From NCBI GenBank assembly GCA_903847545.1, contig CAINDZ010000414.1:1-30788 (forward strand): a stretch of 30,788 nt of DNA. Reading direction: 5' to 3'. Numbering within the stretch: position 1 is the first letter of the stretch; the number at the start of each line of letters is the position of its first letter. The notes below the pieces were generated by a model that saw only the letters and a program-made list of their open reading frames with translations, had not been told where the DNA came from and did no database searches. The translations under genes and the position numbers were made by a program. Positions 1 through 18,620 of the stretch are shown here, one piece after another. The DNA is from an uncultured bacterium. Lineage in GTDB: Bacteria; Krumholzibacteriota; Krumholzibacteriia; LZORAL124-64-63.

Positions 1-387
1 GCCGACTCGGCCCTGATGGCTGCGCTGATGGAGGGCCTGTCCCGCCGCGGCCTGCGCTTCGTGGACAGCCTCACCTCGCCGGCCTCGGTCGCCTATGCCG
101 CGGCGCGGCAGGCCGGCGTGCCGGCGCTGCGCAGCCGCATCTTCCTGGACGCCGACCGGACCAGCAGCGAGGCCATCGCCGCGAACCTCGCGCGGCTGGT
201 CGCGGCCGCGCGGGCCGGCGGCGCCGCCGTGGGCATCGCCCACCCGTACGTGACGACGGCCGAGGTGCTGGCGGCCGAACTGCCCCGTTACGAAGCCGCC
301 GGGGTACGCTTTGTCACGGTCTCCGAACTGATGGCGAAAACACCCGCCGGGTCGGACCCCATGGGGGAGGACGCCGGTGGCCGCTGA
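1..387 (+). CDS. Divergent polysaccharide deacetylase family protein (YibQ-like), 5' truncated
   Basis: The frame is open from base 1. Motifs FVDSLTSPASVA, RIFLD and AVGIAHPY match the C-terminal half of this family. Confidence 0.8.
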   Translation, partial: ADSALMAALMEGLSRRGLRFVDSLTSPASVAYAAARQAGVPALRSRIFLDADRTSSEAIAANLARLVAAARAGGAAVGIAHPYVTTAEVLAAELPRYEAAGVRFVTVSELMAKTPAGSDPMGEDAGGR

Positions 388-1486: not shown

Positions 1487-1522
1487 GCCACGGCTGAATT
1501 TCTGGATTCCCCGCCGCCTTTG

Positions 1523-1531
1523 TGCTATCAT
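1523..1531 (+). promoter_or_regulatory. Possible extended -10 promoter for secDF
   Basis: TGCTATCAT (TGn + TATCAT) in the intergenic gap. No convincing -35. Confidence 0.4.
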
Positions 1532-1709
1532 GTTCACCGCCATTTAAGGCGAAAGGCCGGGTTCCACGGGCCCCTCGGGGGACAGTCGTGCGCCCCGGCA
1601 GGCATGCCGATGCGTGCGAACTACGGCGTGCTTTTTTTTGCCGTCCGTCGTCTTTTTTCGCGCGTATTTTCGCGACAACGGTTGGGTTCGATGTCCGGGG
1701 AGTGCCAAG

Positions 1710-3305: not shown

Positions 3306-3381
3306 CCAACGCGCACTGCGGCCGGCGCCCCGAGGGGCGCGGCCGTCGCCGGGATCCGACCCGGGAAAGGCCAAGAGCAAG

Positions 3382-4311
3382 ATGCAGTTCTTCACGAAGC
3401 CCAACTTCAATTTCGTCGGTGCGATGAAGTTCGCCTTCTCGCTTTCCGGCGTGGCGGTGCTGGCGAGCCTGATCCTGCTGCTCGTGCACGGCGGTCCCCG
3501 CTGGAGCATCGACTTCACCGGCGGTTCCGTGCTGCAGGTCAAGTTCGCCTCGTCGCCCGGCATCGCCGCCGTGCGGCAGACGCTCGAGAGCAAGGGGTAC
3601 GCCGGTGCCCAGGTGACCGAATTCGGCGCCACGGACGAGTTCCTGATCACCCTGCCGGCCAAGAAGGGCGCCGGCGGCGCGGAGGCCGCGACGGCCGCCC
3701 AGCGCGTGCTCGACGACCTGCGCGCCACCTACCCGAACGGCCAGATCGACATGCGTCGCTCCGAGTCGGTCGGCCCCAAGGTGGGCGGTGAACTGCGGAC
3801 GGCGGCCATCAACTCGGTCGTCGTCGGCCTGTTCCTGATTGCGGTGTACATCTGGTTCCGGTTCGTGCTGCGCTACGGCTTCGCCGCGATCCTGGCGCTC
3901 TTCCACGACGTGATCCTGACCCTCGGCATCTTCTCGCTGCTCAATCTCGAGGTCAGCCTGCAGATCGTGGCCGCGCTGCTGACGATCGTCGGCTACTCGA
4001 TCAACGACACGATCGTGGTCTTCGACCGTATCCGCGAGAACATGAAGCTGCGCCGCAAGGAGAGCTACCGCGAGGTTATCAACCGGTCGATCAACGAGAC
4101 CCTCAGCCGCACGATCCTGACGTCGTTGACCACTTTTACGGTGGCAGTGGTGCTGTGGATCATGGGCGGTCCGGTGATCCGCGACTTCGCGTTCGCGATG
4201 AGCTTCGGCGTGTTCGTCGGCACGTACAGTTCGATCTTCATCGCCAGCCCGCTGCTGGTGTGGTGGTCGGACCGCCAGATCGACAAGAAGCAGGCTGCTT
4301 TGGAGATGTAG
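3382..4311 (+). CDS. secF: Protein translocase subunit SecF (309 aa)
   Basis: IDFTGG, ESVGPKVG and GYSINDTIVVFDRIRE motifs. Directly follows secD. Confidence 0.97.
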   Translation: MQFFTKPNFNFVGAMKFAFSLSGVAVLASLILLLVHGGPRWSIDFTGGSVLQVKFASSPGIAAVRQTLESKGYAGAQVTEFGATDEFLITLPAKKGAGGAEAATAAQRVLDDLRATYPNGQIDMRRSESVGPKVGGELRTAAINSVVVGLFLIAVYIWFRFVLRYGFAAILALFHDVILTLGIFSLLNLEVSLQIVAALLTIVGYSINDTIVVFDRIRENMKLRRKESYREVINRSINETLSRTILTSLTTFTVAVVLWIMGGPVIRDFAFAMSFGVFVGTYSSIFIASPLLVWWSDRQIDKKQAALEM

Positions 4312-4522: not shown

Positions 4523-5662
4523 CTACCGGATCGTGGGGAATGGGGAAGCGCCCGAGCTGCCGTGGCAACTCACGCAAGCCCGCCCCTCCTCATGACTCTC
4601 GTCATGACACTTCTTGCACAACTGCCCCTGGCCCACGCCGGGATACGGGCTCGGCAGCGCGTACGACCCCGACACGACCCCGTCGTCGGCCAGGCGGTAG
4701 ACCCGGAAATCCCAGCGCCCGGCCGCCGGCCCCGACGATCCGTGCGCCCGGTGGCAGGTCAGGCACATCAGCCTGCTGCCGGCCTGCGGCCCACTGGTGC
4801 CGGTGACCGTCATGGCGGCGTCCTCGAACGGGACCTGGGAGACATAGGCATCAACGCTGCTGCCGGTCCCGGGGCTGGCATCGCCCTCGTAGCGGTTGTA
4901 CCGCGTGCGTTCGTCGGAGCCGAGCGTCCCGTCCACCGGGTGCTCGAACGCGGCGCCGCTGCCTTCCTCGTGGTACATGCCGTGGCAGTTGGCGCACCAC
5001 CGGGACATGCCTGAGCGGTAGGCGGTGTGCGACGCGGCCGTTTCCGTGGCGCCGGAGTCGGTGATGTCGAGCCCCTCGGCGACGGGCGCGGGATACAGGA
5101 AGTTCGCCACGCCGTTCTGCACCGGCCCGGGGCCATTCAATGACCGGAACCCGTCCGAGCCGTGGGGGTCGTGGCAGCTGGTGCAGCCGAGCAGGGCCGA
5201 CGGGAACGTGCCGCCGGGGGCGTGCGACCAGCGGGGATCGGCGTTCGTGCCCCGCGCGGGCGACACGATGTTGTGTCCCGAGGCGTGGCCGCCGAGGGGC
5301 GACGCGGCCCCGCCGGCGGCGTCATTGATGTTGTCCTCGAGCAGCCACGTGAAATTTCCGGCGCCCCGCTCGGCAGGAGGCACGTTCGGCGCCGGGCCGA
5401 AGACGCCGTAGCTGCCGTGACAGGTCAGGCAGAGGTCGGTGGCCGAGGCCGCCACCAGCAGGGGGCGCGTGCCGTCGAGGGCGATCTCGCCGGCGGCCGC
5501 ATCGTGCATGATGTGGCAGGTTCCGCAGGAGCCGACGCCGCCCGCATGAATGGGGCCGCCGTGGGCCGGCACGGCTGCCAGCACCCAGGCCAGGCCGGGC
5601 GCCATGACGAGGACGCAGGCCTTGCGCAAGGCCCGGACGCGGCGGGATCGTGAAGGCGTCAT
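4523..5662 (-). CDS. OmcS-family multiheme cytochrome c, paralogue 2, seven CxxCH (379 aa)
   Basis: CGTCH, CLTCH, CTSCH, CANCH, CLTCH, CKKCH and CVSCH. OmcS-type motifs HAGGV..C..CHIMH, GHNIV, APGGTFP, GMSRWCANCH, VPFED and CLTCHRAH. Signal peptide present. Start moved to ATG 5662. Confidence 0.85.
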   Translation of the reverse strand: MTPSRSRRVRALRKACVLVMAPGLAWVLAAVPAHGGPIHAGGVGSCGTCHIMHDAAAGEIALDGTRPLLVAASATDLCLTCHGSYGVFGPAPNVPPAERGAGNFTWLLEDNINDAAGGAASPLGGHASGHNIVSPARGTNADPRWSHAPGGTFPSALLGCTSCHDPHGSDGFRSLNGPGPVQNGVANFLYPAPVAEGLDITDSGATETAASHTAYRSGMSRWCANCHGMYHEEGSGAAFEHPVDGTLGSDERTRYNRYEGDASPGTGSSVDAYVSQVPFEDAAMTVTGTSGPQAGSRLMCLTCHRAHGSSGPAAGRWDFRVYRLADDGVVSGSYALPSPYPGVGQGQLCKKCHDESHEEGRACVSCHGSSGASPFPTIR

Positions 5663-5703
5663 CGTGAGTGCCCCCATGGGGATACGGCCATGTTCGTCCC
5701 TCA

Positions 5704-5712
5704 ATTCTAGCA
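5704..5712 (-). promoter_or_regulatory. Possible extended -10 promoter for paralogue 2
   Basis: Minus strand TGCTAGAAT, downstream of the hairpin and about 40 nt before the start codon. -35 is weak. Confidence 0.45.
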
Positions 5713-5732
5713 CGGGGCAGGGGTTCAGGCCA

Positions 5733-5779
5733 GCCCGCAAAAGCGGGCGGGCCCCGCGGATCGCTCCGCGGGGCCCGCC
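5733..5779 (-). terminator. Terminator or stabilising hairpin after the omcS-like gene
   Basis: Perfect 15-bp stem (5746-5760 / 5765-5779) with a GCGA tetraloop on the minus strand, then CGCTTTT. An alternative hairpin GCCCGC-TTTT-GCGGGC (5733-5748) overlaps it. Confidence 0.7.
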
Positions 5780-5809
5780 TCAAGGGCCATCAGGCCGACC
5801 AGTCGGCTC

Positions 5810-6907
5810 CTAGTAGAGCTTGTGGTCGTTGTAGTCCTTGGCATGGCACTTGTTGCACAGCGAGCGCTGGTTCGCCGAGAACGTGTAGCCATAGTACTTG
5901 CGGTCGACATCGGTCTGGATGAAGCCGGTGTCGGTCGCCAGCGGGTGCGACTGCGAGATCAGCATGACGCTCATGTCCCAGCGGGCGGCGTCCGCGAACG
6001 GCGAGGCGTGGGCGCGGTGGCAGGTCAGGCACATGACTTCGTCAGCGCCGTCCGGGCCCACCGTGTTCGTCGTCGAGTTGACGGTCGCCACGTCAGCCTG
6101 CACGTCCTCGAAGGGCACCAGGCCGTTGTACGACGTGGCCTGCGTGCCGCTGGTCATGTCGTCGGAGCTCACGTACGCGTTGTACGCGGCGGCGATCGTC
6201 GAGCCCAGCTCGCGCGTCGGGTGCACGAAGTTGGTCGTGTTGTCCTCGTGGAAGTTCTCGTGGCAGTTCGCGCACCAGTCGCTCATGCCGCTGATGTACA
6301 CGGTGTGCTTGGCGTTGGTCTCGTCGCCGTTCGTGGCGGAGCCGACGTAGGTGCGGCGGCTGTTGCCCTTGGCGATCGGGGCCGGGTTGGCGAAGTCATA
6401 GCGGCCACCGGCGTAGAAGGGGCCGAGGTCGGCGCCGTACAGCAGGCGGAAGTTCTGGTTGCCGTGGGGGTCGTGGCAGCTGGTGCAGCTCAGGTTGGCG
6501 CCCGAGAAGTCGCCGCCGGGGGCGGTCGTCAGCGTCACGTCGGCAGCGATGCCCTTCGTGGGAGCGACGACGTTGTGGCCGTGGCTGTCGCCCTTGCTGA
6601 TGCCCGTCGAACCCCAGGTGAACGTGCGGGTCACCCAGTAGAAGTCGCCGCCGGGGCCGTAGCCCTGGCCGTTCATGAACTGGCCGTAGTTGGCGTGGCA
6701 GCGCAGGCAGGTGTCGCTCGGCGAGCCGGCGTTCAGCAGGAACTCGTTGCCGGCGGGATGGGCGGCGTCGACGACGGCGCCGTTCTGGCTGTTGTGCATG
6801 GTATGGCAGCCGGCGCAGTAGGCGACGCCACCATCATGGAACGCGAGCACGGAGCTGGCCGACAGGCCGAGCACCAGCACCAGGGCGAACTTGATGAGAT
6901 TCTTCAC
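5810..6907 (-). CDS. omcS: OmcS-like hexaheme cytochrome c, putative nanowire subunit (365 aa)
   Basis: Sec signal MKNLIKFALVLVLGLSASSVLA, then FHDGGVAYCAGCHTMHN, PGGDF, GHNVV, TLTTAPGG, CTSCHDPHG, GMSDWCANCH, CLTCHRAHAS and QRSLCNKCHAKD. These are collinear with G. sulfurreducens OmcS as I recall it. Six CxxCH. GTG start at 6907 with GGAGG 7 nt upstream. Confidence 0.9.
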   Translation of the reverse strand: MKNLIKFALVLVLGLSASSVLAFHDGGVAYCAGCHTMHNSQNGAVVDAAHPAGNEFLLNAGSPSDTCLRCHANYGQFMNGQGYGPGGDFYWVTRTFTWGSTGISKGDSHGHNVVAPTKGIAADVTLTTAPGGDFSGANLSCTSCHDPHGNQNFRLLYGADLGPFYAGGRYDFANPAPIAKGNSRRTYVGSATNGDETNAKHTVYISGMSDWCANCHENFHEDNTTNFVHPTRELGSTIAAAYNAYVSSDDMTSGTQATSYNGLVPFEDVQADVATVNSTTNTVGPDGADEVMCLTCHRAHASPFADAARWDMSVMLISQSHPLATDTGFIQTDVDRKYYGYTFSANQRSLCNKCHAKDYNDHKLY

Positions 6908-7065
6908 GAGTGAGCCTCCAGAAGCAAGTTTGCTGGTCCCGCACGACGGCACGGAACCGTTACGAGTGACCTTTGCCGATCCGCTGCCGGAAGGCCTGGC
7001 AGGATCGACGCCGAACGAACCATCCACCTTGCAGAGACGCCTTCCACGAACCTCTTCCCAAACCA

Positions 7066-7083
7066 GCCCGGCCGAAGCCGGGC
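7066..7083 (-). terminator. C(UUCG)G tetraloop hairpin just after the NHL gene
   Basis: Minus strand GCCCGGC-TTCG-GCCGGGC followed by TGGTTT. Could be a weak terminator or a processing/stability element. Confidence 0.45.
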
Positions 7084-7087
7084 ATGT

Positions 7088-8068
7088 CTATTCAGCCGTC
7101 CCGATGGCCTGGACGTTGAATACCTGCACCAGGCTGCGGAACGACTGCGCCACGTAGACGTGGCCGTTGCCGTCCGCCGCCATCGACACCGGGTAGTAGA
7201 AGGCGCCCGGTGTGTCGCCGATCGAGCCGTACTCGGCCACGAACTCGTTCCGGCCATCGAAGGCCATGATCTTGTGGCGCAGCTGGTCCAGCACCAGCAG
7301 CGTCCCGCCCGGGCCGGCCGCGGCGGCGACGGGGAACACCATGCGGCCGGGGGACGAGCCCACGCGACCGAAGCTGCCGGTCTGCTGGCCATCCTCGTCG
7401 ACGACCAGCATCACGTGGAGGTTGCCGCCGGGCACGCGGAACGTGCCGTCGGGCATCTGCGCCGGGCGCCCGAGGTTCATGTCCAGCTGGGCGTCGTCGT
7501 TCTGGCCCTCGCCGATGACGTGCGACCACAGTAGGGCGCCGGTGTCCTTGTCGTGCTTGGCCATCAGGCCGCTCGCGCCGTCCACCGTCACGTAGTGGCC
7601 GTCGCGTGCGACCAGCAGGTGCGTGGGGCGCCAGTCGCCCGCGGGGCGCTCGACACGGTAGCCGTCGGGTTCGCCGTAGGTGTCCAGGCGCACGATCGAC
7701 GCGTCCTGCCCGTCGACCGCCGACGTGGCCACGAGGCGGCCCTCATGGTCGACGGCGCCGTCGCTCGGCAGCGAGATGCCCGCGAAGCCGCCGGTGCGGA
7801 AAGTCTCGCAGCCCGCGGCGTTGAACACGTGCAGCGCGCTGTAGGCGGATTCGGTGACGCAGATCTCGCCGGCCACGGCATCGCAGGTGACGGCTGCGGG
7901 GCGGGCCCGGCCGTCGTGGTTCTGCGAGAGGTTCAGCGCGCCCGAATACTGGAAGCTGACCGTGCCGGTCGTCGCAGCCGCCACCGACGCAAACGCAAGG
8001 GCGGCTGTTATCACAGCAACACCCTGGAGGCCGTTCGCGATCGTGGTGGAGGGGCGATGGAAGGTCAC
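7088..8068 (-). CDS. Exported NHL-repeat beta-propeller (326 aa)
   Basis: NHL-like repeats (FGRVGSSPGRMVFPVAAA, YGSIGDTPGAFYYPVSMAADGNGHVYVA...VQVF). N-terminal hydrophobic signal. No CxxCH. Confidence 0.8.
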   Translation of the reverse strand: MTFHRPSTTIANGLQGVAVITAALAFASVAAATTGTVSFQYSGALNLSQNHDGRARPAAVTCDAVAGEICVTESAYSALHVFNAAGCETFRTGGFAGISLPSDGAVDHEGRLVATSAVDGQDASIVRLDTYGEPDGYRVERPAGDWRPTHLLVARDGHYVTVDGASGLMAKHDKDTGALLWSHVIGEGQNDDAQLDMNLGRPAQMPDGTFRVPGGNLHVMLVVDEDGQQTGSFGRVGSSPGRMVFPVAAAAGPGGTLLVLDQLRHKIMAFDGRNEFVAEYGSIGDTPGAFYYPVSMAADGNGHVYVAQSFRSLVQVFNVQAIGTAE

Positions 8069-8133
8069 GCGTCACGCTCTTGTCACAGGTTTCGTTGGGA
8101 GGCCGGTCGTCCCGGCTCACTTGTCACGGATAT

Positions 8134-8161
8134 ATCATATCACACGCCCGGACGATGTCAA
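8134..8161 (-). promoter_or_regulatory. Sigma70-type promoter for the NHL/omcS-like unit
   Basis: Minus strand TTGACA (8161-8156), 16-nt spacer, TATGAT (8139-8134) with an extended TG, and an upstream T-rich tract. Confidence 0.75.
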
Positions 8162-8260
8162 CCCATACGCCAAAAAATAAACGTGTGATTGGGCATCGCA
8201 TATGACTTTCGGTATCAAAATGTAACTTGTGACATATCCTACATTTAACTTGGAGTTCGG

Positions 8261-8348
8261 GAAAACAGAAGCGGCAGGCCGGGGAAACCGGCCTGCCGCC
8301 CGGGGTTGGAACGCCCCGCGGGAGGGTTTGGCGACCCTCCCGCAGGGG
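8261..8348 (-). terminator. Double hairpin / intrinsic terminator after the 42-heme cytochrome
   Basis: 10-bp stem at 8318-8343, then a perfect 12-bp stem at 8271-8299 followed by TTCTGTTTT on the minus strand. Confidence 0.8.
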
Positions 8349-8357
8349 TGTCGGAAG

Positions 8358-11300
8358 CTAGGAACCCTCGCGCTTGGGGCGCAGCTTGTCGGTGTGGCAA
8401 CCGATGCAGAGCTTGCCGTCGGGATCATCCCGCAGGAAGCGCACGAACTGCGACCCGTGCGGGTCGTGGCAGCTGTCACACGTCATCTTCAGGCCCGTGC
8501 GGGGATCGACGGTCGTCTCGCCCATCGGGTGGTCGGTGTGGTCCCGGTAGGTGTGGCACGCCAGGCAAACCTCGGGGGCCTTGACGCCGTCGGTGCTCTT
8601 GGGAGCCGCCAGGTGCGGGTCGTGGCAGGCCGTGCAGAGGTCTCCCTTCACCTCGGGATGGCGATGGGCCGCCTTGCGGTTGAGGTCCACCTTGTCCTGG
8701 TGGCACGTGCCGCAGATGGCCGCCTGCGACCGCGGCAGCAGCGGCGCGTTCGGCGACGTGTGCGGCGAGTGGCAAACCGTGCAGGCCTTCTCGCCCGTCA
8801 GCGGGGCGTGCAGGGTCCCTGTCTTCAGGTCCTCCTTCATCGCCACGTGACAGCCGAAGCACAGCGCCGGCTGCGCGGCCTTCGTCGCCTTCGTGCTGCC
8901 GACATGGCAAGCCGCACAGTTGCCCTGCGCGAACGGCGCGTGCTCGTTCGGGTGGGGCAGGTTCGCCCGCTTGGCGGCGTGCGGCGTGTGGCAGCCCGCG
9001 CAGTCCGCGTCGGCCACCGGGAAGCCGCGGTGCTTGGCCGGCAGCGCCTGCGGCGCGTGGCACTTGGCGCACAGGACCTTCGTCTCGGCGACCAGGTTCA
9101 TCTCCACCGGGCCGCCGTGCGGGTCGTGGCAGCGCGTGCAGGCGCCGGTCTTCAGCGGCGCGTGCACCACCGGCAGCTTCTTGAGCTCCTCGATGGGCTT
9201 GTGGCAGCTGACGCACAGCTCCGCGGCCGGCAGCCGGAGCAGCTTCGGCTGCGGCGAGGCATGGGGGCTGTGGCAGGCCTCGCAGCGACCCTCGCGCACG
9301 GGGGTGTGGGCGAGCTCCGGCCGGGGCGTCAAGGTGGACGGGTCGTGGCAGGTCGCGCACACCACGGCCGTCGTCGTGCCCTTCAGGAAATGCTCGCCGC
9401 GCGAGACGTGGGGGTTGTGGCACGCGCTGCACTCGCCGTCCCCGAACGGCGCATGCACCGTCTGCCCCGGGGCCGCGGCGTCCGGCAGGCTGTCGTGGCA
9501 CTGGGCGCAGACCGGCGTCTGGTTGGCGATCGGCTCGGCCGACTGGTGGCAGCTGGCGCAATCGCGGTCGGCGAACGGCGGGTGGGCCTTGGCCACCAGC
9601 AGGCCCGGCACGGTCGCGTTGTGCGGCTCGTGGCAGTCCAGGCACGCCATGGAGGCCCCGTCGCGCCCGCGGTGCTTCTCCTGGAAGCCGGCGCCCTTCT
9701 CGTCATGGCACCGGAAGCAAAGCGCCGGCACCTTGTCGCGCAGGAACCCGGGACCCTGGCCGCCGTGGGGGAGGTGGCATTCCAGGCACTCGCCCTGGCT
9801 GGGCGGGTGGATGGAGGCGGCGCCCTTCGGCGCGGCGATGTCCTCGTGGCACAGCCCGCAGAGCTTGTCCTTGTCGGCGACCAGGAGCACCTTGCGCGTC
9901 GAGCGGTGCGGATCGTGGCACGCCGTGCAGTTGCCGTCGCTCACCGGCTTGTGGCCCTGCCAGCCCGTTCCGGACGGCTGCCCCACGTCGTGGCAGGCCG
10001 CGCAGGTCGGGGCCACCGGCTGCCGCAGCAGCGCGTGCTCCTGCCCGCCGTGCGGCAGGTGGCAATCCAGGCAGGCGCCCTCGGCCGCCGGCGGGTGCAG
10101 CGCGCCGCCCTCGGGCTGCTTCGACAGGTCGGCGTGGCAGCCGGCGCACAGGGCCGCCGGGGCCTTGGTCAGCAGCGCGGGCTGGTCCGAGGTGTGCGGC
10201 TTGTGGCAAGCCAGGCACTCGCCGCGGGCCACCACGTCGTGCGTGTTCGGGGCCGAAAGTTCCAGCTGCACCTTGGTGTGGCAGCCGAGGCACAGCGTGC
10301 CGGCTTCCTTGCGCAGCAGGGCCGGATGGCTGGCGCTGTGCGGGTCGTGGCACACCGAGCACGCCTGCTTGGCCAGCGGGGCGTGGACCACGGTCGCGGT
10401 CGCGCCCGCCGCCGGCAGGACGTCGGTGTGGCAGCCGGCACAGACGGCGTTCGTCTCGTCCTTCATCAGCTTGGGACGGTCGCCGCCGTGCGCGTCATGG
10501 CATGTGCTGCAGGCGCCCTCGGCCGCCGGCGCGTGCTGGACGGCGCGCTCGAACGGCTGCGATTCGTGGCAGGACAGGCAGACCTTGCGCTCGCCGGCCA
10601 CCAGCAGGGCCGGCCGCGCGCTGCCGTGCGGCGCGTGGCACTGCACGCACTCGTGCTCGGCCGCGGGCGGGTGCGGGACCTTGCGCGACGCCGGGTCGTC
10701 GTGGCACTGCACGCAGAGTTCGGCGGCGGGCACCGTCAGGGCGCCCTTCGCGGCGGTGGGCGAAAGGTCGTGGCACTGCGCGCAGTCGCCGTCGGCCATC
10801 GGCGCGTGCTGCACCGCGTACTGCAGGTTCTCGCCGTCGGCGCTGTGGGGGTCGTGGCACGACACGCAGCCCGAGACCGTGCCCTGGACCTTGTGCGCCT
10901 TGGCCAGCTTGCCGGCATCGGCGTGGCACGACAGGCACATCTGGTCGCCCGGCAGCTTCAACAGGCCTGCGTTGTCCGACGCGTGCGGGTCGTGGCACGC
11001 CGCGCAACCGCCCTTGGCCAGGGGCTGGTGCACGTGCTTGCGCTGGTACGGCTTGGGGTCGTGGCACTTGAAGCATGCCGCCTGGCCGGCCGCCGGCAGC
11101 AGTCCCGGCTGGCCCGAGCCGTGCGGGTCGTGGCAGCCGGTGCAATCGCCCTTGCGCAGCGGGTCGTGCACGACGTCACGCTTCGTCACGCCGATCAGGT
11201 CCTTGTGGCACTCGGTGCACAGGTCCTTGCCCGTGTTCTTCAGCACGAGCTTGCCGATGACCCCGTGGCGCCGGTGGCAGCCCTCGCAGTCGCGGGCGGC

Positions 11301-11486
11301 AAAGGGCTGGTGGGCCGACTTCGCGGGGACCTTCTTCAGCGTCTCCTGGTGGCAATCGACGCATCCCTTCGTCTTGAAGCCGGCGGCCGCGGCCGGGGCG
11401 GCGCACAATCCGGAGACGAGGGCCAGCGCCAGGAGGGCCCCCAGGGCGTCCCGGCGACGGGCATGGGCAGCGGTGCTGTGATCCAC
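8358..11486 (-). CDS. Giant multiheme cytochrome c with 42 CxxCH motifs (1042 aa)
   Basis: 42 CxxCH counted by hand. Signal peptide ends ...AAPAAAA. GTG start at 11486 with AGGAGG 7 nt upstream; the track start at 11846 overlaps the upstream gene. Confidence 0.93.
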   Translation of the reverse strand: MDHSTAAHARRRDALGALLALALVSGLCAAPAAAAGFKTKGCVDCHQETLKKVPAKSAHQPFAARDCEGCHRRHGVIGKLVLKNTGKDLCTECHKDLIGVTKRDVVHDPLRKGDCTGCHDPHGSGQPGLLPAAGQAACFKCHDPKPYQRKHVHQPLAKGGCAACHDPHASDNAGLLKLPGDQMCLSCHADAGKLAKAHKVQGTVSGCVSCHDPHSADGENLQYAVQHAPMADGDCAQCHDLSPTAAKGALTVPAAELCVQCHDDPASRKVPHPPAAEHECVQCHAPHGSARPALLVAGERKVCLSCHESQPFERAVQHAPAAEGACSTCHDAHGGDRPKLMKDETNAVCAGCHTDVLPAAGATATVVHAPLAKQACSVCHDPHSASHPALLRKEAGTLCLGCHTKVQLELSAPNTHDVVARGECLACHKPHTSDQPALLTKAPAALCAGCHADLSKQPEGGALHPPAAEGACLDCHLPHGGQEHALLRQPVAPTCAACHDVGQPSGTGWQGHKPVSDGNCTACHDPHRSTRKVLLVADKDKLCGLCHEDIAAPKGAASIHPPSQGECLECHLPHGGQGPGFLRDKVPALCFRCHDEKGAGFQEKHRGRDGASMACLDCHEPHNATVPGLLVAKAHPPFADRDCASCHQSAEPIANQTPVCAQCHDSLPDAAAPGQTVHAPFGDGECSACHNPHVSRGEHFLKGTTTAVVCATCHDPSTLTPRPELAHTPVREGRCEACHSPHASPQPKLLRLPAAELCVSCHKPIEELKKLPVVHAPLKTGACTRCHDPHGGPVEMNLVAETKVLCAKCHAPQALPAKHRGFPVADADCAGCHTPHAAKRANLPHPNEHAPFAQGNCAACHVGSTKATKAAQPALCFGCHVAMKEDLKTGTLHAPLTGEKACTVCHSPHTSPNAPLLPRSQAAICGTCHQDKVDLNRKAAHRHPEVKGDLCTACHDPHLAAPKSTDGVKAPEVCLACHTYRDHTDHPMGETTVDPRTGLKMTCDSCHDPHGSQFVRFLRDDPDGKLCIGCHTDKLRPKREGS
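8370..11365 (-). repeat. Tandem doubled-CxxCH protein repeats of about 40 aa
   Basis: The recurring unit HxP---G-CxxCHxPH-S----LL------LCxxCH is visible throughout the protein. Confidence 0.85.
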
Positions 11487-11506
11487 GTTCGAGCCTCCTG
11501 CTGCGA

Positions 11507-12856
11507 TCACTTCGAGGCCGCGTTGTTGATGGTGGCGGCATTGGCGGTCGCCGCCTTGGCGACCTCGGCGACGACGCGCGCCACTTCCTGCTCGGCACCG
11601 GGCAGGATGACGATCGGGGATTCCTTCTCCAGGCGCGCGATGATCATGGCCATGTGGTCGCGCATCGCGTCGCGCTTCATCATGCCCAGGATCTGCTCCC
11701 GGCACTGCTCCAGGGGCAGCGGCTGCCCGGGCTCCAGGGCGACGACCTGCGCGACCACCCAGCCGTCGGGCACCTGGTAGGGCTCGGGCACCATGTTCAG
11801 CTTCACGTCCTCGGGCTTCAGGCCCATTTCCTCCGGCCGCAGCCACATGTCGGGGAACGGCGCCGGCCCCTTGGCCACGCGCTTGTCGTTCTCGGCCAGC
11901 CAGCGCACCGTCGCGCCGCCGAGGATCTTCTCGCGCAACTGGTTGGCCACCTCGGGCGAGGCCGCCTTCAGGCTGGCCATCTTCAGGCGCGGCGGCGCGG
12001 TCACTTCAAGCGTGTGCGCGCGGTAGTAGTGCGAGATCTCCTGGCTCGTGGGCGCGAAGTCGAACTGCAGCAGGACGCGGAGCGCCTCCTCGAGGATCGT
12101 GCTGCGCTCGAAGCGCGCGCGCAGCATCACCATCTGCGGCTGCTGGTCCATCTTCTGCGCCTTCAGCTGGCGGTTCACGGCGACCTGGGCCAGGTGGTCG
12201 CGCAGGATGTCGTCGCGGCGCTGCGAGGCGTCCGGCTTGCCGACCAGGCCGTGGAACTCGGTGAAGCGCAGCTCGCGCGTGAAGTCGGCGACCGTCAGTG
12301 AGCGGCCGTTGCCCACGCGGGCCAGCACCTCGGTGCTGTTCTGCAGGCGCTTCTGCACCGCGGCCTCGGCCGAGCCGTAGTCCAGCGACCGGAGCACCGT
12401 CGAGTCGACCGAGACGCCATAGCGGCGGAACAGTCCGTCCAGGTAGGCGCCGACCGCGGCCTTGCGCTTGTCCTGCACGCCCGGCGTCTCCGCGGGGATG
12501 GCCAGGGCGACGGAGTCGAGCAGTGCCTTCATGCACTCGTGACGGACGACCTCGTCGCACTGGTTGCGGACGGTGAACTCCTGGTCCAGGCCCATGCGGA
12601 AGCCTTCCTGGATGATCAGGTGGTTCTGCGTGAGCCGCTTGAGGATGTCCTTCGGCTCGCCGAACGACAGCGCGACGTTGTTCTCGTTCCTGACCTGCAT
12701 CAGGCCGAGCTCGATGTTCAGCTCCGTGGTGGTGACGGTGTCGGGCCCGACCAGCGCCAGGGGGATTTCCCGGGGTGTTTCCGCCATGGTGCGGACGGCC
12801 GAGGCCATCACGACGGCCGCGGTGGCCAGGGCCAGGCGCTTCGTTGTCGATTTCAT
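11507..12856 (-). CDS. SurA/PrsA-like exported chaperone with a parvulin-like domain (449 aa)
   Basis: ATG at 12856 with GGAGGAG and an ATGA overlap with the upstream stop. Signal peptide. Two 'LA.VG...T..EL/DF' SurA-N-like starts and a C-terminal 'A..L.EKI..G....LA...PEP..V.DGW.V..V' rotamase-like pattern. Confidence 0.7.
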   Translation of the reverse strand: MKSTTKRLALATAAVVMASAVRTMAETPREIPLALVGPDTVTTTELNIELGLMQVRNENNVALSFGEPKDILKRLTQNHLIIQEGFRMGLDQEFTVRNQCDEVVRHECMKALLDSVALAIPAETPGVQDKRKAAVGAYLDGLFRRYGVSVDSTVLRSLDYGSAEAAVQKRLQNSTEVLARVGNGRSLTVADFTRELRFTEFHGLVGKPDASQRRDDILRDHLAQVAVNRQLKAQKMDQQPQMVMLRARFERSTILEEALRVLLQFDFAPTSQEISHYYRAHTLEVTAPPRLKMASLKAASPEVANQLREKILGGATVRWLAENDKRVAKGPAPFPDMWLRPEEMGLKPEDVKLNMVPEPYQVPDGWVVAQVVALEPGQPLPLEQCREQILGMMKRDAMRDHMAMIIARLEKESPIVILPGAEQEVARVVAEVAKAATANAATINNAASK

Positions 12857-13929
12857 GGGGTGGGCTCCTCCAGGAGGCGTTGCAGGTTGGGCCAGAGTTG
12901 ATCGGCGCCCTTGCGCATCTGTTCCAGCAGCGTCGGCGTGTGCGTCAGCCCGAACCACCCGGTGTGCGGGGCGCCCGGGGCCAACACGGAGTCGGCCGCG
13001 CGGACACGCCCGGTCCCGAGGTCGAGCACGCGCCAGGTCATCGTCAGGTCCCCGGCCTCGCTGGCGCCGGCGGCGGCGTCCTCGGGCTCGGGCGGCGCGG
13101 CCACCGCGACGGCGCTGCCGTCGCGGCCGAACGAGACCACCTCGGCCTCGACGGCCAGGGCGACGCCGAAGGCCTGCGCCAGCAGGTCGCGTCCGCCGCG
13201 GTCCAGGCGGGTCAGGTCGCGACCGTCGGCCAGCGCCACCCCCGTGGCCAGCGCGGGATCGAGCACGCGCCGCGAGGTGTCGCGCACCGCCTCGGCGAGC
13301 AGGCACGTCGTGGCCTGGCGCGCCGCCAGGGCGTCCAGGCCGATGCCCGTGCCCGGCAGCACGAGCAACGCGGCGCCCTTGCCGGTCAGGTTGCGCAGCG
13401 AAGGCATCGCGTCGCGAAGCACGTCGACCAGGGCGTGTTGCCAGCGGCCGGTGGGGACGGGCGCCTCGGCGATGCGGATGTCGGCCAGCCTGCCCGTGCC
13501 GGTCGCCACGGACCGCCCGGTCGCCGTGAAGCGACCGTCGCCGGAAAGCAGCGTGAAGGCGACCAGCGTCTCGGCGCCCACCTCGTCGCGCAGCCCCGAC
13601 AGGAACGCCGGCGGCAACGACGCCGCCGAGCGAACCCGGAAGCGGTGGACGAGTTCCTCGGTGGCGGCGCGGTCGGCCAGCGGCTGGTCGGTGGCGCCGA
13701 CCATCGCGGCGATCATGTCCAGCGCCGTGCGGCGCACGGTCGCGACATCGGCCTCCAGGCCGGCCACGGGATCGCCCTCGATGTGCAGCATGATGGCGAT
13801 GGTCCCGGGTCGCGGCGCCTGCCCGGCGGCGACCAGCGTGTCGGGCGCGTCCCCGGCAGCGCCGGCGCCCGTCGCCAGGAGCAGCCCGGCGACGGCGCAC
13901 AGCAGGCGGCTGCCGGGCACGATGCGCAT
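12853..13929 (-). CDS. Exported protein with two tandem CsgG/TolB-N-like domains (358 aa)
   Basis: Signal peptide. Two 'G.....V...V/L ... R.V/LD..TGR' patterns (EVGAETLVAFTLL..RSVATGTGR and AFGVALAVEAEV..RVLDLGTGR). TGATG coupling to the upstream gene. Confidence 0.5.
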   Translation of the reverse strand: MRIVPGSRLLCAVAGLLLATGAGAAGDAPDTLVAAGQAPRPGTIAIMLHIEGDPVAGLEADVATVRRTALDMIAAMVGATDQPLADRAATEELVHRFRVRSAASLPPAFLSGLRDEVGAETLVAFTLLSGDGRFTATGRSVATGTGRLADIRIAEAPVPTGRWQHALVDVLRDAMPSLRNLTGKGAALLVLPGTGIGLDALAARQATTCLLAEAVRDTSRRVLDPALATGVALADGRDLTRLDRGGRDLLAQAFGVALAVEAEVVSFGRDGSAVAVAAPPEPEDAAAGASEAGDLTMTWRVLDLGTGRVRAADSVLAPGAPHTGWFGLTHTPTLLEQMRKGADQLWPNLQRLLEEPTP

Positions 13930-14510
13930 CAGAACAGGGTCTCCAGCGCGGCGCGGACGTTGGCGCGGGCCACGTCGAAGATGCCGGCCGTGCCGCCGCC
14001 GAACAGCTTGCGCATGACCGAGGTGCCGTCGGTGCGGGTCTGCGAGGACCAGACCAGGCGCCCGGTCTGCGTCTCGTGCAGCTGGTAGACCGACGTAACG
14101 ACCTGCGCGGGGTCATGCGCGGAGCGCTCGGTGCCGTATTCCTCGACGGTCCCGAAGAAGACGCCGTCGACCTGCAGTCGCTTGCCCAGTTCCATGACCT
14201 GTTCGGGGCTCATCACGCGGTCGGGGGCGATCTTCATCTCGGACACGATCGCGAGCGTCTCGCCGCGGTCGGCCACCTCGACCTGCCCGGTCTTGAGGAC
14301 CTCGGTCACGAAGATCGACTGCACGCGCTGTGCCGCGAACGTGTCCTGCGTGAGGTTGTAGAAGGGGAAGATGGCGACCCGGCGAATGAAGCTGAAGTCG
14401 ACGTCCTCGCGGATGTACTGGCTGGCGCGGGGGCCGCATCCGGCCGCCAGCGAGCACAGGACCACCAGCGCCGTGGCCAGGCCGAGGGCTGCGTTCCTCG
14501 TGTACTTCAT
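13929..14510 (-). CDS. CsgG/GNA1162-like outer-membrane lipoprotein (193 aa)
   Basis: Lipobox LAAG-C25 with Gly at +2. RVAIFPFYN, ELGKRLQVDGVFFGTV and ETQTGRLVWS match this fold family. ATG at 14510 after AAGGA. Confidence 0.7.
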   Translation of the reverse strand: MKYTRNAALGLATALVVLCSLAAGCGPRASQYIREDVDFSFIRRVAIFPFYNLTQDTFAAQRVQSIFVTEVLKTGQVEVADRGETLAIVSEMKIAPDRVMSPEQVMELGKRLQVDGVFFGTVEEYGTERSAHDPAQVVTSVYQLHETQTGRLVWSSQTRTDGTSVMRKLFGGGTAGIFDVARANVRAALETLF

Positions 14511-14580
14511 CGTTCGTCCTTTCGCCGGTCGGCCCGCACCCGCAGGGCAGCCCGTCACACGAAAATCTGCGATACCGCAG

Positions 14581-16779
14581 TCAGAATGTCCAATATGCGC
14601 GCAACTGGAACCCGAACGGCCAGCTTTCGTGCCCTTCGAGCCGCTCGAAGTTCTTTTCGACGCTGCCGGCCAGGGACAGGCGCGTCCGCGCCTGCCAGTC
14701 GACGGTGACACTGCCGCCGCGGCGCAACTGGCCGGTGCGCGAGTCCTGGTAGTCGTTCGCCTGGAAGGACGTGAGCACGCTGCCGCCGCGGAGCGGGCTC
14801 CACGAGAGGGTGTTGCGGACGATCCAGTCAGTTTGCTCCCGGCGCTGGCTGGTGGCCTGGCACGACCACGAAAGCAGGGGCCTGATCTCCCAGGAAGCGT
14901 CCACTTCGGCCTCGCCGAACGACGTGAAACCCGAGCCGGCCTGCTGCCCCACCCAGCGCTCGGTCCGGCGCACGTCCAGGCGCACGCCGGGACGCGGCAC
15001 GCTACGGATCTCCGAGGCCACCAGCCACGAATCCGAATCGGCCGTCCCGTATTCGCCGGTGCGCCAGCTGCGCGACACGCGCTGGACGAACGTCAGCTGG
15101 GGGGCCGCCTGCCAGGTGGCGTCCGTCATGACGGACTCGGTGACCTGCCGGACGCTGTAGGTGTTGTCGCGGGCCTGCATCCACGACAGCCTGGCCGACA
15201 GGGCTCCGGGGTCGCGCCGGGCCAGCGAAACCTGTCGCGTGTTGGACTCCGAACGCAATCGCGTCGGGCTCTCCTCGGTGTTCGTCTGGTACTGCCCGGA
15301 GAGCGACCAACCGGCCACGCGCCATGTCGCCAGCGCACCCTTGTTGACGCGCTCGAGACGGCCGATGCCCAACTGGTCGCGCCGATCGAGGTTGCCGTCG
15401 ATCCTCACCTGCAGGCTCGGGGCGGGGCTGAATTCGAGGGCGCCGGCGAGCGTTGTCCGCTCCTGCCGCGACGAGCGGTTGGGCTGCCCGGTCTCCGTGG
15501 GCCCGTAGACCTCGAACTCGGTGACGAACAGGTCGCCGAGCGTCGGCCCCAGCTTCCGGTCCACCAGCTTCAGGCGGCGATGCGAGACCGACCCGGTGAA
15601 GGTGATCTCCCACCCCTGGCGCCCCGACTCCTGCTCGACGTAGCGGATGCTCCAGGCGCCCGGGGCCACGGCGCTGCCCCAGTCGCGGCCTTCCGCCTCG
15701 TCGCAGAAATAGAGGTCCCACTGGAACATCGCGGGGATGCTGCCGATCCGGCGGTCCACGTAGAGGAACGCCGACGTCATCGCCACGGGCTCGCCGAAAT
15801 CGAGGGTGATGTTCCGGTAGTCGCCGCCGAAGTCGCGCCCGGCCGGCGCGTTGTCGCCGAGGTTGATGATCGTGGGGACCAGGCGGTCGTTGTCGAACAG
15901 GGCCGGCACCTGCTCCGGCTGCGTCTCGAGCGGATCGAGGAAGCTCGGCGTGTCGTCCACGCCGAAACCGCCGGTCACCGGCTGCCGGTATTGCGACACG
16001 ATGTCGCCGGTGAATTCCTCGCGCTGGTCGAAGCGCCGGTGGCCCATCGTCCACGACACGCGCCCGCGCGGACCGGCAAAGGCGCGGTTGCCCTGGTATT
16101 CCACCTGCTGTGTCGTGTAGCGGGCCAGGCGGTTGTTCGTGACGGCGTCCTGCTCGACGAGCGTCGCGCGGTACTGGAGATTGTCCTGGCGGGAGAGGTC
16201 CAGGCGCAGCCTGCCGCTGCCGAGGCGGTCGCGGTTCTCGCGGTCCTCGCCCTCGGCGCGCCGCCACGACGCGTTGTCCTGGTAGTTCGCGTCGCCCGAA
16301 AGCCTGCCCAGGCGGGCGCTGGTCCACACGCCGAACTCGAGGCTGTCGTCCCGTTGAGCCGGGATGCCGACGAAGTCCTGGTCCGAGCGATTGCCCCGCG
16401 CGAACGCATTGAAGCGCCAGCTGCCGGCCTGCATCGCCAGGCTGCTCGAAGGCGAGAGCACGGTCATGTGGTTGTCGACCGTCGTGCCCGCCGCCGTGCC
16501 CCGCAGCAGCTCGCGCCGGGCCGTGTACTGGAACTGCAGGCTGGCCCGCTGCGAGAGGCGGATCGTCTGGTCCACGCCGAACAGGTGCCACTGGTTGTCG
16601 CTGCTGTACGCGGTGCCGCCGGAGTTGCCCTCCTGGTGCAGCGAGCGCACGTCGAACCTGCCGTCGAGCGCGAGTGCGGGACCGACCACGCCGGCCACGA
16701 CCATGCCGGCCACCAACAGGCGACCGACACATGCCACGCAGTGGCGCTCGGGACGGGGCTTCGCGGCGAGCGGCGACAT
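14581..16779 (-). CDS. Large outer-membrane beta-barrel protein with an inserted soluble domain (732 aa)
   Basis: Signal peptide, alternating amphipathic beta-strands throughout, and C-terminal GFQLRAYWTF ending in an aromatic residue (BAM-type signal). Confidence 0.75.
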   Translation of the reverse strand: MSPLAAKPRPERHCVACVGRLLVAGMVVAGVVGPALALDGRFDVRSLHQEGNSGGTAYSSDNQWHLFGVDQTIRLSQRASLQFQYTARRELLRGTAAGTTVDNHMTVLSPSSSLAMQAGSWRFNAFARGNRSDQDFVGIPAQRDDSLEFGVWTSARLGRLSGDANYQDNASWRRAEGEDRENRDRLGSGRLRLDLSRQDNLQYRATLVEQDAVTNNRLARYTTQQVEYQGNRAFAGPRGRVSWTMGHRRFDQREEFTGDIVSQYRQPVTGGFGVDDTPSFLDPLETQPEQVPALFDNDRLVPTIINLGDNAPAGRDFGGDYRNITLDFGEPVAMTSAFLYVDRRIGSIPAMFQWDLYFCDEAEGRDWGSAVAPGAWSIRYVEQESGRQGWEITFTGSVSHRRLKLVDRKLGPTLGDLFVTEFEVYGPTETGQPNRSSRQERTTLAGALEFSPAPSLQVRIDGNLDRRDQLGIGRLERVNKGALATWRVAGWSLSGQYQTNTEESPTRLRSESNTRQVSLARRDPGALSARLSWMQARDNTYSVRQVTESVMTDATWQAAPQLTFVQRVSRSWRTGEYGTADSDSWLVASEIRSVPRPGVRLDVRRTERWVGQQAGSGFTSFGEAEVDASWEIRPLLSWSCQATSQRREQTDWIVRNTLSWSPLRGGSVLTSFQANDYQDSRTGQLRRGGSVTVDWQARTRLSLAGSVEKNFERLEGHESWPFGFQLRAYWTF

Positions 16780-16911
16780 GGGTTCTGCGCAGCCTCGGCT
16801 GGAAGGGTGGACCGGCGGTGGGGGACGGCTTCCGGCGCGCCCGGGTCAGGGGGCGACTGCGGCGCGCGTAAGTCCTTGTCCGCCGTAGGATTCCTGTCGT
16901 TGCGAGTTAAA

Positions 16912-16940
16912 AAAATAACAAATAGGACGAAAATAAGCAA
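16912..16940 (-). promoter_or_regulatory. Possible sigma70 promoter upstream of the beta-barrel gene
   Basis: Minus strand TTGCTT-N17-TATTTT with TG extension, inside a strongly AT-rich intergenic patch. Confidence 0.35.
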
Positions 16941-16986
16941 TCATGAACTTGGGATATCACGGGGGGTTACGAAATACCCTCGGTCC

Positions 16987-17832
16987 TCAGGGGACTTCCG
17001 TCATGGACGCCATCAACCGGGTGTCGGCCGTCGGTCCCGAGTTCTTCAACTGGTGGCAGCCGAGGCAGAGTTCGGGCTGCGTCGGGAACGCCACCAGCAG
17101 GTCGCGCTGCCCGCCCGTCAGGGAGTGGCACGTCTGGCACTCGACCTTGCCGTCGAACAGGCGCAGGCGCGGGTCGATCGGCGAGCGCAGGCGACGCTCG
17201 TCGTGCCCTGAACCGGCCACGGCTTCGACACCCAGGGGGTGGGTGGCGTGCTGGTTGAAGGTCAGCGATTCGCCGCCGGCGTCACCCTGCCAGGTCGAGC
17301 CGCTGCCGCTGGCGTGGCAGTTGAGGCAGCCCTGGCTCGGTGACTGGCCTGCCAGCAGCGCCGCATCGCGATGATACAGGGCTGCGGCGGCCCGGTGCGC
17401 CGGCGAGAGTTTCGACAGGTCGGCGCCGGGCTCGTGGCAGCCGGCGCAGTGCGCCGGGACGCCGTCACCCAGGCCCTCGGCCGGCATGGTCAAGGTGCCG
17501 ACCGATGTCTTGAGCCGGCCGAGGTCATGGAACGTGTGACATCCGGCGCAGTCGGCCTTGGGGTCGTCATGGAAGCCCAGCTGGCGCGACGCCGGCGATC
17601 CCTTGGCGGACACGTCGCGATGGCACGTGCGGCACGCCCGCGAGCGGGGGTCCGGGTCGTCGGGACCGGCGGTCGCGACCGCCCGCGCGGCGGCTCCCAG
17701 GTGGCAGCGCGCGCAGGCGATCCCCTCGTGCGGATCCGCAGCCGACGCCGAAAGCCCGTTCGCGGCCACGGAGGCTGCGGACAGGAGCAGGGCCGACAGG
17801 ACGGCAAGGTGCGTGCGCAAGGTGTCATTCAT
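16987..17832 (-). CDS. Exported heptaheme cytochrome c (281 aa)
   Basis: CARCH, CRTCH, CAGCH, CAGCH, CLNCH, CQTCH and CLGCH. Signal peptide from M at 17832. No clear RBS. Confidence 0.85.
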   Translation of the reverse strand: MNDTLRTHLAVLSALLLSAASVAANGLSASAADPHEGIACARCHLGAAARAVATAGPDDPDPRSRACRTCHRDVSAKGSPASRQLGFHDDPKADCAGCHTFHDLGRLKTSVGTLTMPAEGLGDGVPAHCAGCHEPGADLSKLSPAHRAAAALYHRDAALLAGQSPSQGCLNCHASGSGSTWQGDAGGESLTFNQHATHPLGVEAVAGSGHDERRLRSPIDPRLRLFDGKVECQTCHSLTGGQRDLLVAFPTQPELCLGCHQLKNSGPTADTRLMASMTEVP

Positions 17833-18028: not shown

Positions 18029-18045
18029 CTGGCACGCGGATTGCC
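18029..18045 (+). promoter_or_regulatory. Sigma54 (RpoN) -24/-12 promoter
   Basis: CTGGCACGCGGATTGCC versus consensus YTGGCACGNNNNTTGCW, about 60 nt before the first gene of the operon. Confidence 0.75.
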
Positions 18046-18105: not shown

Positions 18106-18612
18106 ATGGACATGCGCCGACATCGCCAAGCGCCGGAACCCCGGTTCCGCCGGGCCGCCTGCCTGTCGGGCCTGTTCGTGCTGCTGGCCGTCCTGCCTCT
18201 CGCGGCAACGGCGGCGCCGCAGGCCCGCGGCGAGCATGCGCGACCGGCGGGGGATGCGCCGGGAGACGTGTTCTCGCGGCTGGCGTCGGCGTTCGAATCA
18301 GGCGATGCAGGCGGCCTGGCCGCGCTCGTGCATCGCGAGGGCCTGGCCGTCACGGACCGCGGCGAGCGATCCAGCGAGTACAGTCCCAGCCAGGCGCTCT
18401 ATTTCTTCAAGAACCTCTTCCAGGGGCAGCGCACGCTGCTGTTCGCGTACCGCACGTCGCCCGACGATGGTGACGGAGGCCGGGCCCGGGCCATGGCGCA
18501 GTGGAAGCGTCGCCGGATCGACTCCGAAGTGGTCGTCGAGGTGCAGGTGGTCCTCGTGCTGGCGCTCGACGAAGGGCGCTGGCGTCTCGCCGAGATCAAC
18601 ATGGTTCGCTAG
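18106..18612 (+). CDS. Small exported NTF2-like protein, DUF4783-like (168 aa)
   Basis: Signal peptide. AFESGDAGGLA, EYSPSQALYFFKNLF and GRWRLAEI resemble DUF4783. Start uncertain (18061, 18106 or 18112). Confidence 0.55.
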   Translation: MDMRRHRQAPEPRFRRAACLSGLFVLLAVLPLAATAAPQARGEHARPAGDAPGDVFSRLASAFESGDAGGLAALVHREGLAVTDRGERSSEYSPSQALYFFKNLFQGQRTLLFAYRTSPDDGDGGRARAMAQWKRRRIDSEVVVEVQVVLVLALDEGRWRLAEINMVR

Positions 18613-18620
18613 GAGGCGCG

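Follow-up and report, generated by a model that had tools for sequence, protein, structure and literature searches.

An osc-type OmcS cytochrome locus in a Krumholzibacteriia genome from lake water

Gene content of the locus

The window considered here, the whole stretch of 30,788 nucleotides that was analysed (positions 1 to 30,788 of contig CAINDZ010000414.1, assembly GCA_903847545.1, from an uncultured member of the Krumholzibacteriota), carries on its minus strand, between positions 4523 and 17832, a locus for multiheme c-type cytochromes and for counterparts of the omcS-companion (osc) proteins of Geobacter sulfurreducens. Real genes were told from spurious open reading frames (ORFs) by their GC content at third codon positions (GC3), and heme motifs were counted as CxxCH. 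By these measures nine co-oriented genes, G1 to G9, follow one another head to tail, with GC3 uniform across all nine in a window of about 70-75% GC, and the motifs of G1, G6, G8 and G9 (7, 42, 6 and 7) add up to 62. A preliminary description of this DNA, made from the letters alone, had given the same interval, gene number and motif total, all of which proved exact; its further claim that every product carries an export signal agrees with the basic and hydrophobic signal-like segment that we read by eye at the N-terminus of nine out of nine translations. In the order of transcription the features are as follows.

16987-17832, minus strand: G1, secreted 7-heme c-type cytochrome of 281 amino acids (aa), with 7 CxxCH; first gene of the upstream unit
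14581-16779, minus strand: G2, OscE-type outer-membrane beta-barrel of 732 aa, assigned by profiles and an AlphaFold2 (AF2) model
13929-14510, minus strand: G3, OscF-type lipoprotein of 193 aa with an LAAGC lipobox, assigned by phmmer
12853-13929, minus strand: G4, OscG-type protein of 358 aa with two tandem PelC/LpoB-like domains, assigned by profiles and fold
11507-12856, minus strand: G5, OscH-type periplasmic peptidyl-prolyl isomerase (PPIase) chaperone, assigned by Pfam Rotamase_2 and phmmer
8358-11486, minus strand: G6, 42-heme cytochrome read as an OscI-OscJ fusion, from its 42 CxxCH and alignment
8269-8301, minus strand: intrinsic terminator after G6, a 14-bp stem with a T-rich tail
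8134-8161, minus strand: sigma-70-type promoter of the NHL-OmcS-OmcS unit, matching 11 of 12 consensus positions
7088-8068, minus strand: G7, GSU2505-type NHL-repeat beta-propeller, assigned by Pfam NHL and phmmer
5810-6907, minus strand: G8, compact hexaheme OmcS homologue (OmcS-A), assigned by phmmer against PDB 6EF8
4523-5662, minus strand: G9, OmcS paralogue (OmcS-B) with 7 hemes, the seventh CxxCH C-terminal, assigned by phmmer against PDB 6EF8

Two of the four cytochromes are homologues of OmcS, as the preliminary description had proposed. Against the OmcS chain of PDB 6EF8, phmmer gave 6.1e-57 for G8, in three collinear stretches that span chain residues 1-407, and 1.1e-25 for G9. The mature N-terminus of G8, FHDGGV, aligns with F1 of OmcS. 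In an alignment of G8 and G9 with OmcS, OmcT and OscC of G. sulfurreducens (A4), all six CxxCH motifs are invariant and stand at homologous positions, and so are His2, 16, 110, 147, 247, 257 and 335 (mature OmcS numbering); the equivalent of His16, which is kept in G9, is invariant across the 11 sequences of alignment A1 as well. In the filament solved by Wang and colleagues in 2019, His16 of OmcS reportedly ligates heme 5 (Cys328-x-x-Cys331-His332) of the neighbouring subunit. G8 therefore shares with OmcS (PDB 6EF8/6NEF) a full-length match, six CxxCH in register, the distal histidines including His16, and the N-terminal pattern F-H-x-G-G-V, whereas it differs in being 42% identical and about 342 aa long when mature, compared with 407, and in lacking two loops that Geobacter OmcS carries at about mature residues 60-80 and 150-190. 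Judging from its sequence, G8 is the most likely candidate for the filament subunit.

The seventh CxxCH of G9 falls beyond the point where OmcS ends, and each of the seven other species of the genus has it too, in the neighbouring B copy (7/7). Metatranscriptome contigs, of which there were three, all short, 94-98% alike and from one lake library, fell only on G8 and its 5' end, within 5794-7100, and neither OmcS-B nor the main part of the NHL gene had a contig from the same lake-water run; two of the metatranscriptome sets (X19 and X20) seem to be a single data set deposited under two entries. At one end of contig C499 (6701-7888 and 7993-8649) stand two more OmcS paralogues in tandem, which share 57-63% identity with G8; the second is probably continued by C689 2-373. 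A genome search found no second module of barrel, lipoprotein and PPIase in this genome.

The accessory proteins and the osc cluster of Geobacter

For direct comparison we used the osc locus of G. sulfurreducens (L120), whose genome was recognised through exact OmcS peptides. GSU2501, GSU2495 and GSU2494 are oscC, oscI and oscJ (PMC13194489), and the osc letters between GSU2501 and GSU2495 were assigned by interpolation. The order in G. sulfurreducens is GSU2505 (NHL), omcS, omcT, OscB, OscC, OscD, OscE, OscF, OscG, OscH, OscI, OscJ and GSU2493 (NHL); OscB (GSU2502) has 1035 aa, OscD (GSU2500) is a beta-propeller-like protein of 498 aa with one CxxCH, OscE is a 729-aa barrel, OscF and OscG are lipoproteins of 199 and 392 aa, OscH is a PPIase of 578 aa, and OscI has 26 hemes. 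In the work of Shen et al. (2025), as summarised in PMC13194489, OscH is assigned to folding, OscE/F/G to secretion and OscD to filament morphology.

Although G2 itself has no match in Pfam or NCBIfam, its relation to OscE is clear from profiles: alignments of the G2 type and the OscE type pair in hhalign at 97.1% (E 7.2e-11, 596 columns), and one iterated barrel profile recovers both OscE (L120:8484-10670; 9.6e-232) and G2 (1e-144). Its AF2 model (predicted local distance difference test, pLDDT, 87) has about 28 long strands, as expected from the barrel of the preliminary description, and an inserted, discoidin-like beta-sandwich at about residues 235-400. In the wider barrel family, 6 of 36 members match the Pfam F5/8 type C family and several match outer-membrane protein (OMP) or porin families. 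The best Foldseek matches of the model are large outer-membrane barrels, namely TonB-dependent transporters, MtrB and ushers, with TM-scores of about 0.3.

G3 matches Pfam LpoB (1e-4) and GNA1162-like (1.7e-3) and is a homologue of OscF (L120:7862-8458; phmmer 5.6e-31). Its stop overlaps the start of G4 in TGATG, and the stop of G4 overlaps the ATG of G5 in ATGA. G4 itself has no Pfam match, yet its hidden Markov model (HMM) recovers OscG (L120:6712-7887) at 1.2e-10, profiles of the G4 type and the OscG type pair in hhalign at 89.9% (E 1.7e-6), the two groups are also joined through intermediate sequences, and in every locus a G4-type gene comes after the OscF-type gene and before the OscH-type gene. 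G4 has a cleavable signal peptide but, unlike Geobacter OscG with its LLAAGC, is without a lipobox cysteine. A model of the G3-G4 complex reached an ipSAE of 0.65, compared with 0.01 for the best control, with the interface on the second G4 domain; since this value is attained by 51 of 78 solved complexes and by 2 of 108 mismatched pairs, the model supports a predicted binding of G3 to G4. Conceivably, the OscF-type lipoprotein is all that attaches G4 to the membrane.

Both G3 and G4 had been described as CsgG-like, which holds for the broad alpha/beta fold group that they have in common with the curli channel CsgG (PDB 4UV2/4UV3), although other members of that group are closer. The AF2 model of G4 (pLDDT 86.4) consists of two tandem alpha/beta domains, and its best solved match in Foldseek is PelC, followed by FlgT, GNA1162, TolB-N and LpoB, whereas CsgG ranks 35th (E 1.2e-3), with TM-scores of 0.24-0.37 and root-mean-square deviations above 10 Å. 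Neither G3 nor G4 matches the Pfam CsgG model (PF03783); in their families, members related to G4 match LpoB, GNA1162-like, CsgG and FlgO, and CsgG is matched by 4 of 31 OscG-family members (best 5.5e-8). The window locus also differs from the curli system in having a separate large barrel gene, because of which the lipoproteins need not form a pore themselves. PelC, the ring-forming lipoprotein under the outer-membrane barrel PelB (PDB 9H80, 5T0Z, 5T10/5T11), would thus be the closer analogy, and we take PelC under PelB as a working model for OscF/OscG under OscE, even though sequence homology is undetectable, the cargo would be a heme protein instead of a polysaccharide, and G4 has two tandem domains.

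The chaperone of the preliminary description is borne out by G5, which matches Pfam Rotamase_2 (1.3e-7) and OscH (L120:4907-6640; phmmer 2.3e-19). G6 follows with the predicted 42 CxxCH and with 20 Paired_CXXCH_1 stretches. OscI of G. sulfurreducens is collinear with G6 residues 18-647 (36% identity, 1e-146), and separate 16-heme proteins of three other loci (L021, L068, L079) align best at about residues 655-1031 (1e-75 to 1e-80). Because these two alignments fall side by side and 26 and 16 hemes make 42, G6 is by its sequence a head-to-tail fusion of OscI and OscJ. Across the junction, a stretch of 201 residues runs without a break in 37 species of the host family, mostly in frames open for at least 1000 aa, with a few shorter ones on short contigs, so the alignments identify the fusion as a trait of the lineage and not an assembly error. 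In the representative genome of G. sulfurreducens, oscJ/GSU2494 reads as two overlapping frames (L120:1593-2930 and 1616-1969, with 10 and 5 CxxCH), a sign of a frameshift or of an error in sequencing; an oscJ frameshift is listed in an evolved strain (PMC13194489). G1, the 7-heme cytochrome, matches the cytochrome c7, cytochrome c3 and Paired_CXXCH families of Pfam, has an AT-rich leader before its ATG at 17832, and is homologous to 7-heme genes at three related loci (L019, L021, L068; tblastn 2e-18 to 5e-43).

G7 belongs to the NHL family of Pfam and matches GSU2505 (L125:199-1188) over its full length (phmmer 9.2e-24), compared with only 4e-4 for GSU2493. As a counterpart of OscD it was ruled out, with no match to OscD. 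Adjacency of NHL and OmcS genes is kept in most loci, and in Geobacter GSU2505 lies directly upstream of omcS. The preliminary description had seen at this locus the chaperone, channel-like and beta-propeller classes of the osc cluster, and this stands for the first two, but the propeller corresponds to GSU2505, and a search of the MAG with Geobacter OscD gave no match.

Taken as a whole, the window locus has homologues of OmcS/OmcT/OscC, OscE, OscF, OscG, OscH, OscI, OscJ and GSU2505, and the sub-order barrel, lipoprotein, second lipoprotein, PPIase, 26-heme part, 16-heme part is identical to that of the cluster GSU2505-GSU2493. The two differ in that the machinery genes precede the omcS genes here and follow them in Geobacter; in addition, the window locus has the fused OscI-OscJ, the OscG-like protein devoid of a lipobox, the compact OmcS-A, a 7-heme OmcS paralogue and a 7-heme cytochrome leading the operon.

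Distribution, transcription and genomic setting

When species-representative genomes were scanned with an OmcS alignment, 79 loci in many phyla emerged, and profile iteration over the ORFs of the fetched loci found the barrel in 46, the OscF/OscG type in 47, the PPIase in 40 and the NHL protein in 49. In about 45 loci, including those of Geobacter, Geomonas, Nitrospirota, Acidobacteriota and Fibrobacteria, the module stands beside OmcS homologues, nearly always in the order barrel, lipoprotein, second lipoprotein, PPIase, 26-heme, 16-heme, with the NHL-OmcS pair nearby. Within the host phylum (208 species genomes) an OmcS homologue occurs in 57 and the barrel in 36, and all 36 barrel genomes are among the 57, with barrel and OmcS about 9 kb apart on one contig; these genomes are related and not independent samples, and the counts carry no statistical claim. 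The candidate nanowire locus of the preliminary description is therefore supported, because the accessory genes proved to be homologous to osc proteins and to co-occur with OmcS homologues across genomes.

Less remains of the novelty that had been attributed to the host and the architecture. A report of 2021 had already described OmcS genes in Krumholzibacteria (PMC7914226), and the osc machinery has been published as widespread by Shen et al. (2025, Cell Chem Biol 32:239; cited in PMC13194489 and PMC13748539), according to whom, as relayed in PMC13748539, it is widespread among bacteria but lacking in archaea. The system is a genuine one of the osc type, complete, with some informative variations and new in its host lineage, but it is not of a new kind.

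The nine genes appear to be transcribed as at least two units, G1-G6 and NHL/OmcS-A/OmcS-B, because a terminator and a promoter stand between G6 and G7. The terminator (8301-8269) has 11 GC pairs in its stem, and the promoter (8161-8134) consists of TTGACA, a 16-nt spacer and a TG-extended TATGAT, the only sigma-70-type site of such strength in 14.5 kb, where 0.3 would be expected. The tail of the terminator and the promoter both lie in an AT-rich island of about 180 nt (8080-8260) in a genome of about 70% GC, which may carry binding sites for regulators. A division into two units also fits the loci of other phyla, in which the relative arrangement of the two blocks varies. The one site that matches the sigma-54 consensus perfectly (TGGCAC-N5-TTGC, at 18030-18044 on the plus strand) was ruled out as a promoter of the osc genes, since it faces divergent plus-strand genes, standing about 65 nt upstream of a gene for a small secreted protein (about 18109-18612, plus strand). 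After that gene comes a sensor kinase of 1595 aa with HAMP, HisKA and HATPase domains (about 18501-23288, plus strand), which could be a local regulator of the cytochrome locus.

On the right the locus is thus flanked by the divergent secreted protein and the HAMP histidine kinase, and on the left by SecD and SecF, with SecF convergent with G9. With no evident tie to the cytochrome locus, the intervals 1-4311 and 24023-27613 hold a polysaccharide deacetylase fragment, a DUF362/4Fe-4S protein, the SecD and SecF just mentioned and a DUF4175 protein of 1196 aa. The host is a Krumholzibacteriia metagenome-assembled genome (MAG) from lake water, in 790 contigs, 96.5% complete and with 3.2% contamination, and near-identical DNA is present in lake water metagenomes. 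Among named proteins, its closest homologues are labelled Candidatus Krumholzibacteriia or Krumholzibacteriota. In the whole MAG there are 32 multiheme ORFs with 291 CxxCH motifs.

A proposed route for OmcS-A and its alternatives

We consider it likely that the locus is the Krumholzibacteriia version of the osc system, including the mechanism of export and polymerisation proposed for it. The course of events that we infer from homology, synteny and folds would begin with export of the apoproteins by Sec and attachment of heme in the periplasm, where the OscH-like chaperone would keep OmcS-A competent for export. An assembly of the OscF-like and OscG-like proteins in the periplasm, under the OscE-like barrel and resembling the PelC ring under PelB, would then pass OmcS-A through the outer membrane, and outside the cell OmcS-A would polymerise head to tail, His16 of one subunit ligating heme 5 of the next. 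The 42-heme G6 and the 7-heme G1 would conduct electrons through the periplasm as far as the filament base. Accordingly arranged, G1-G6 would be the unit for the machinery and the periplasmic cytochromes, and the NHL protein, OmcS-A and OmcS-B a second unit with its own strong promoter.

Several points weigh against this picture. OscD, searched for with the G. sulfurreducens protein, was not found in the whole 96.5%-complete MAG, and the same query matches 32 other loci and gives none in three close relatives (L007, L008, L057). OscB is not in the cluster either, with only weak partial matches on other contigs (best 7.6e-10); it is present in 8 of 84 loci and absent from most loci outside Geobacter. 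The two loops missing from OmcS-A may make its subunit interfaces differ from those of Geobacter OmcS, and the OscG-like G4 has, from its N-terminal sequence, lost its lipid anchor. That OmcS-A forms filaments is a deduction from its kinship, and what the Osc proteins do in Geobacter is itself in part a matter of proposal. The three short contigs from one RNA library are a weak sign that G8 is expressed in lake water, as carry-over of DNA is possible.

A different arrangement of the same parts would be a porin-cytochrome conduit, in which the barrel sheathes the 42-heme or the 7-heme cytochrome as MtrB does MtrA, the OmcS-like proteins are surface reductases acting as monomers or small oligomers, and the lipoproteins and the PPIase serve only the biogenesis of barrel and cytochromes. 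As in the MtrCAB and Pcc conduits, a large outer-membrane barrel is encoded in one locus with multiheme periplasmic and outer-surface cytochromes; the heptaheme gene G1 immediately precedes the barrel gene, every instance of the module includes giant periplasmic cytochromes, and the conserved OscI-OscJ fusion argues for one electron path tied to it. MtrB (6r2q_B) is, moreover, among the best Foldseek matches of G2 (E 5.3e-9), but with a TMq of only 0.33, on a par with TonB-dependent transporters and ushers, and the TM-scores of G2 to all known barrels are low (about 0.3). In contrast to the conduits, the locus encodes PelC-like lipoproteins and a PPIase, and its barrel G2 has no sequence homology to MtrB or to Pcc porins and contains a discoidin-like insert not known from MtrB. 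The strict conservation of His16 in all aligned OmcS homologues would be hard to explain for monomers, and secretion of OmcS has been attributed to OscEFG (work summarised in PMC13194489). We therefore think a conduit of this kind unlikely. About equally unlikely, to our minds, is that the barrel-lipoprotein module is the socket of a single electron path, its barrel taking up the 42-heme protein as a single wire that spans the periplasm and plugs into or through it, and the genus-conserved OmcS-B serving as a basal adaptor or cap that couples this wire to the OmcS-A filament; if it were so, the fusion would be a "Rosetta stone", from which one could tell that the Geobacter OscI and OscJ, too, function end to end.

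The direction of the current is a separate matter. Multiheme chains are reversible in principle, and exported filaments of OmcS-A might take up electrons, for which Fe(II), a syntrophic partner or a cathode-like mineral could be the source, and pass them to oxygen or nitrogen-oxide reductases. Host DNA occurs in lake water metagenomes, and a Krumholzibacteria MAG from an oxygen-limited, iron-fed reactor combines OmcS with the iron oxidase Cyc2 and oxygen reductases (PMC7914226); the window itself, however, holds no indicator of direction, and inward flow seems to us rather improbable. A chance juxtaposition, or an artefact of assembly, might be suspected in a fragmented MAG of 790 contigs with 3.2% contamination, but it is refuted by the conserved synteny, and its probability is negligible: L007, L008, L057 and the seven species of the genus, all assembled independently, share this gene order, neighbouring genes overlap at their start and stop codons, and GC3 is uniform.

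With export and polymerisation of OmcS-A as the favoured reading, the locus extends the complete, syntenic OmcS/osc system to the Krumholzibacteriota of lake water. It supports the view that extracellular electron transfer of the OmcS type is an old and widely shared bacterial trait, and it bears on the cycling of iron and carbon in fresh water. The apparent absence of OscD, and that of OscB from the cluster, suggests that neither belongs to the minimal machine, and the fusion of OscI and OscJ, found in at least 30 species, suggests that the two act as one wire. Together with the conserved 7-heme OmcS paralogue, these lineage-specific features offer testable hints on the workings of the Geobacter system, and the compact OmcS-A, with its roughly 342 residues, could serve as a simpler subunit for structural and engineering work.

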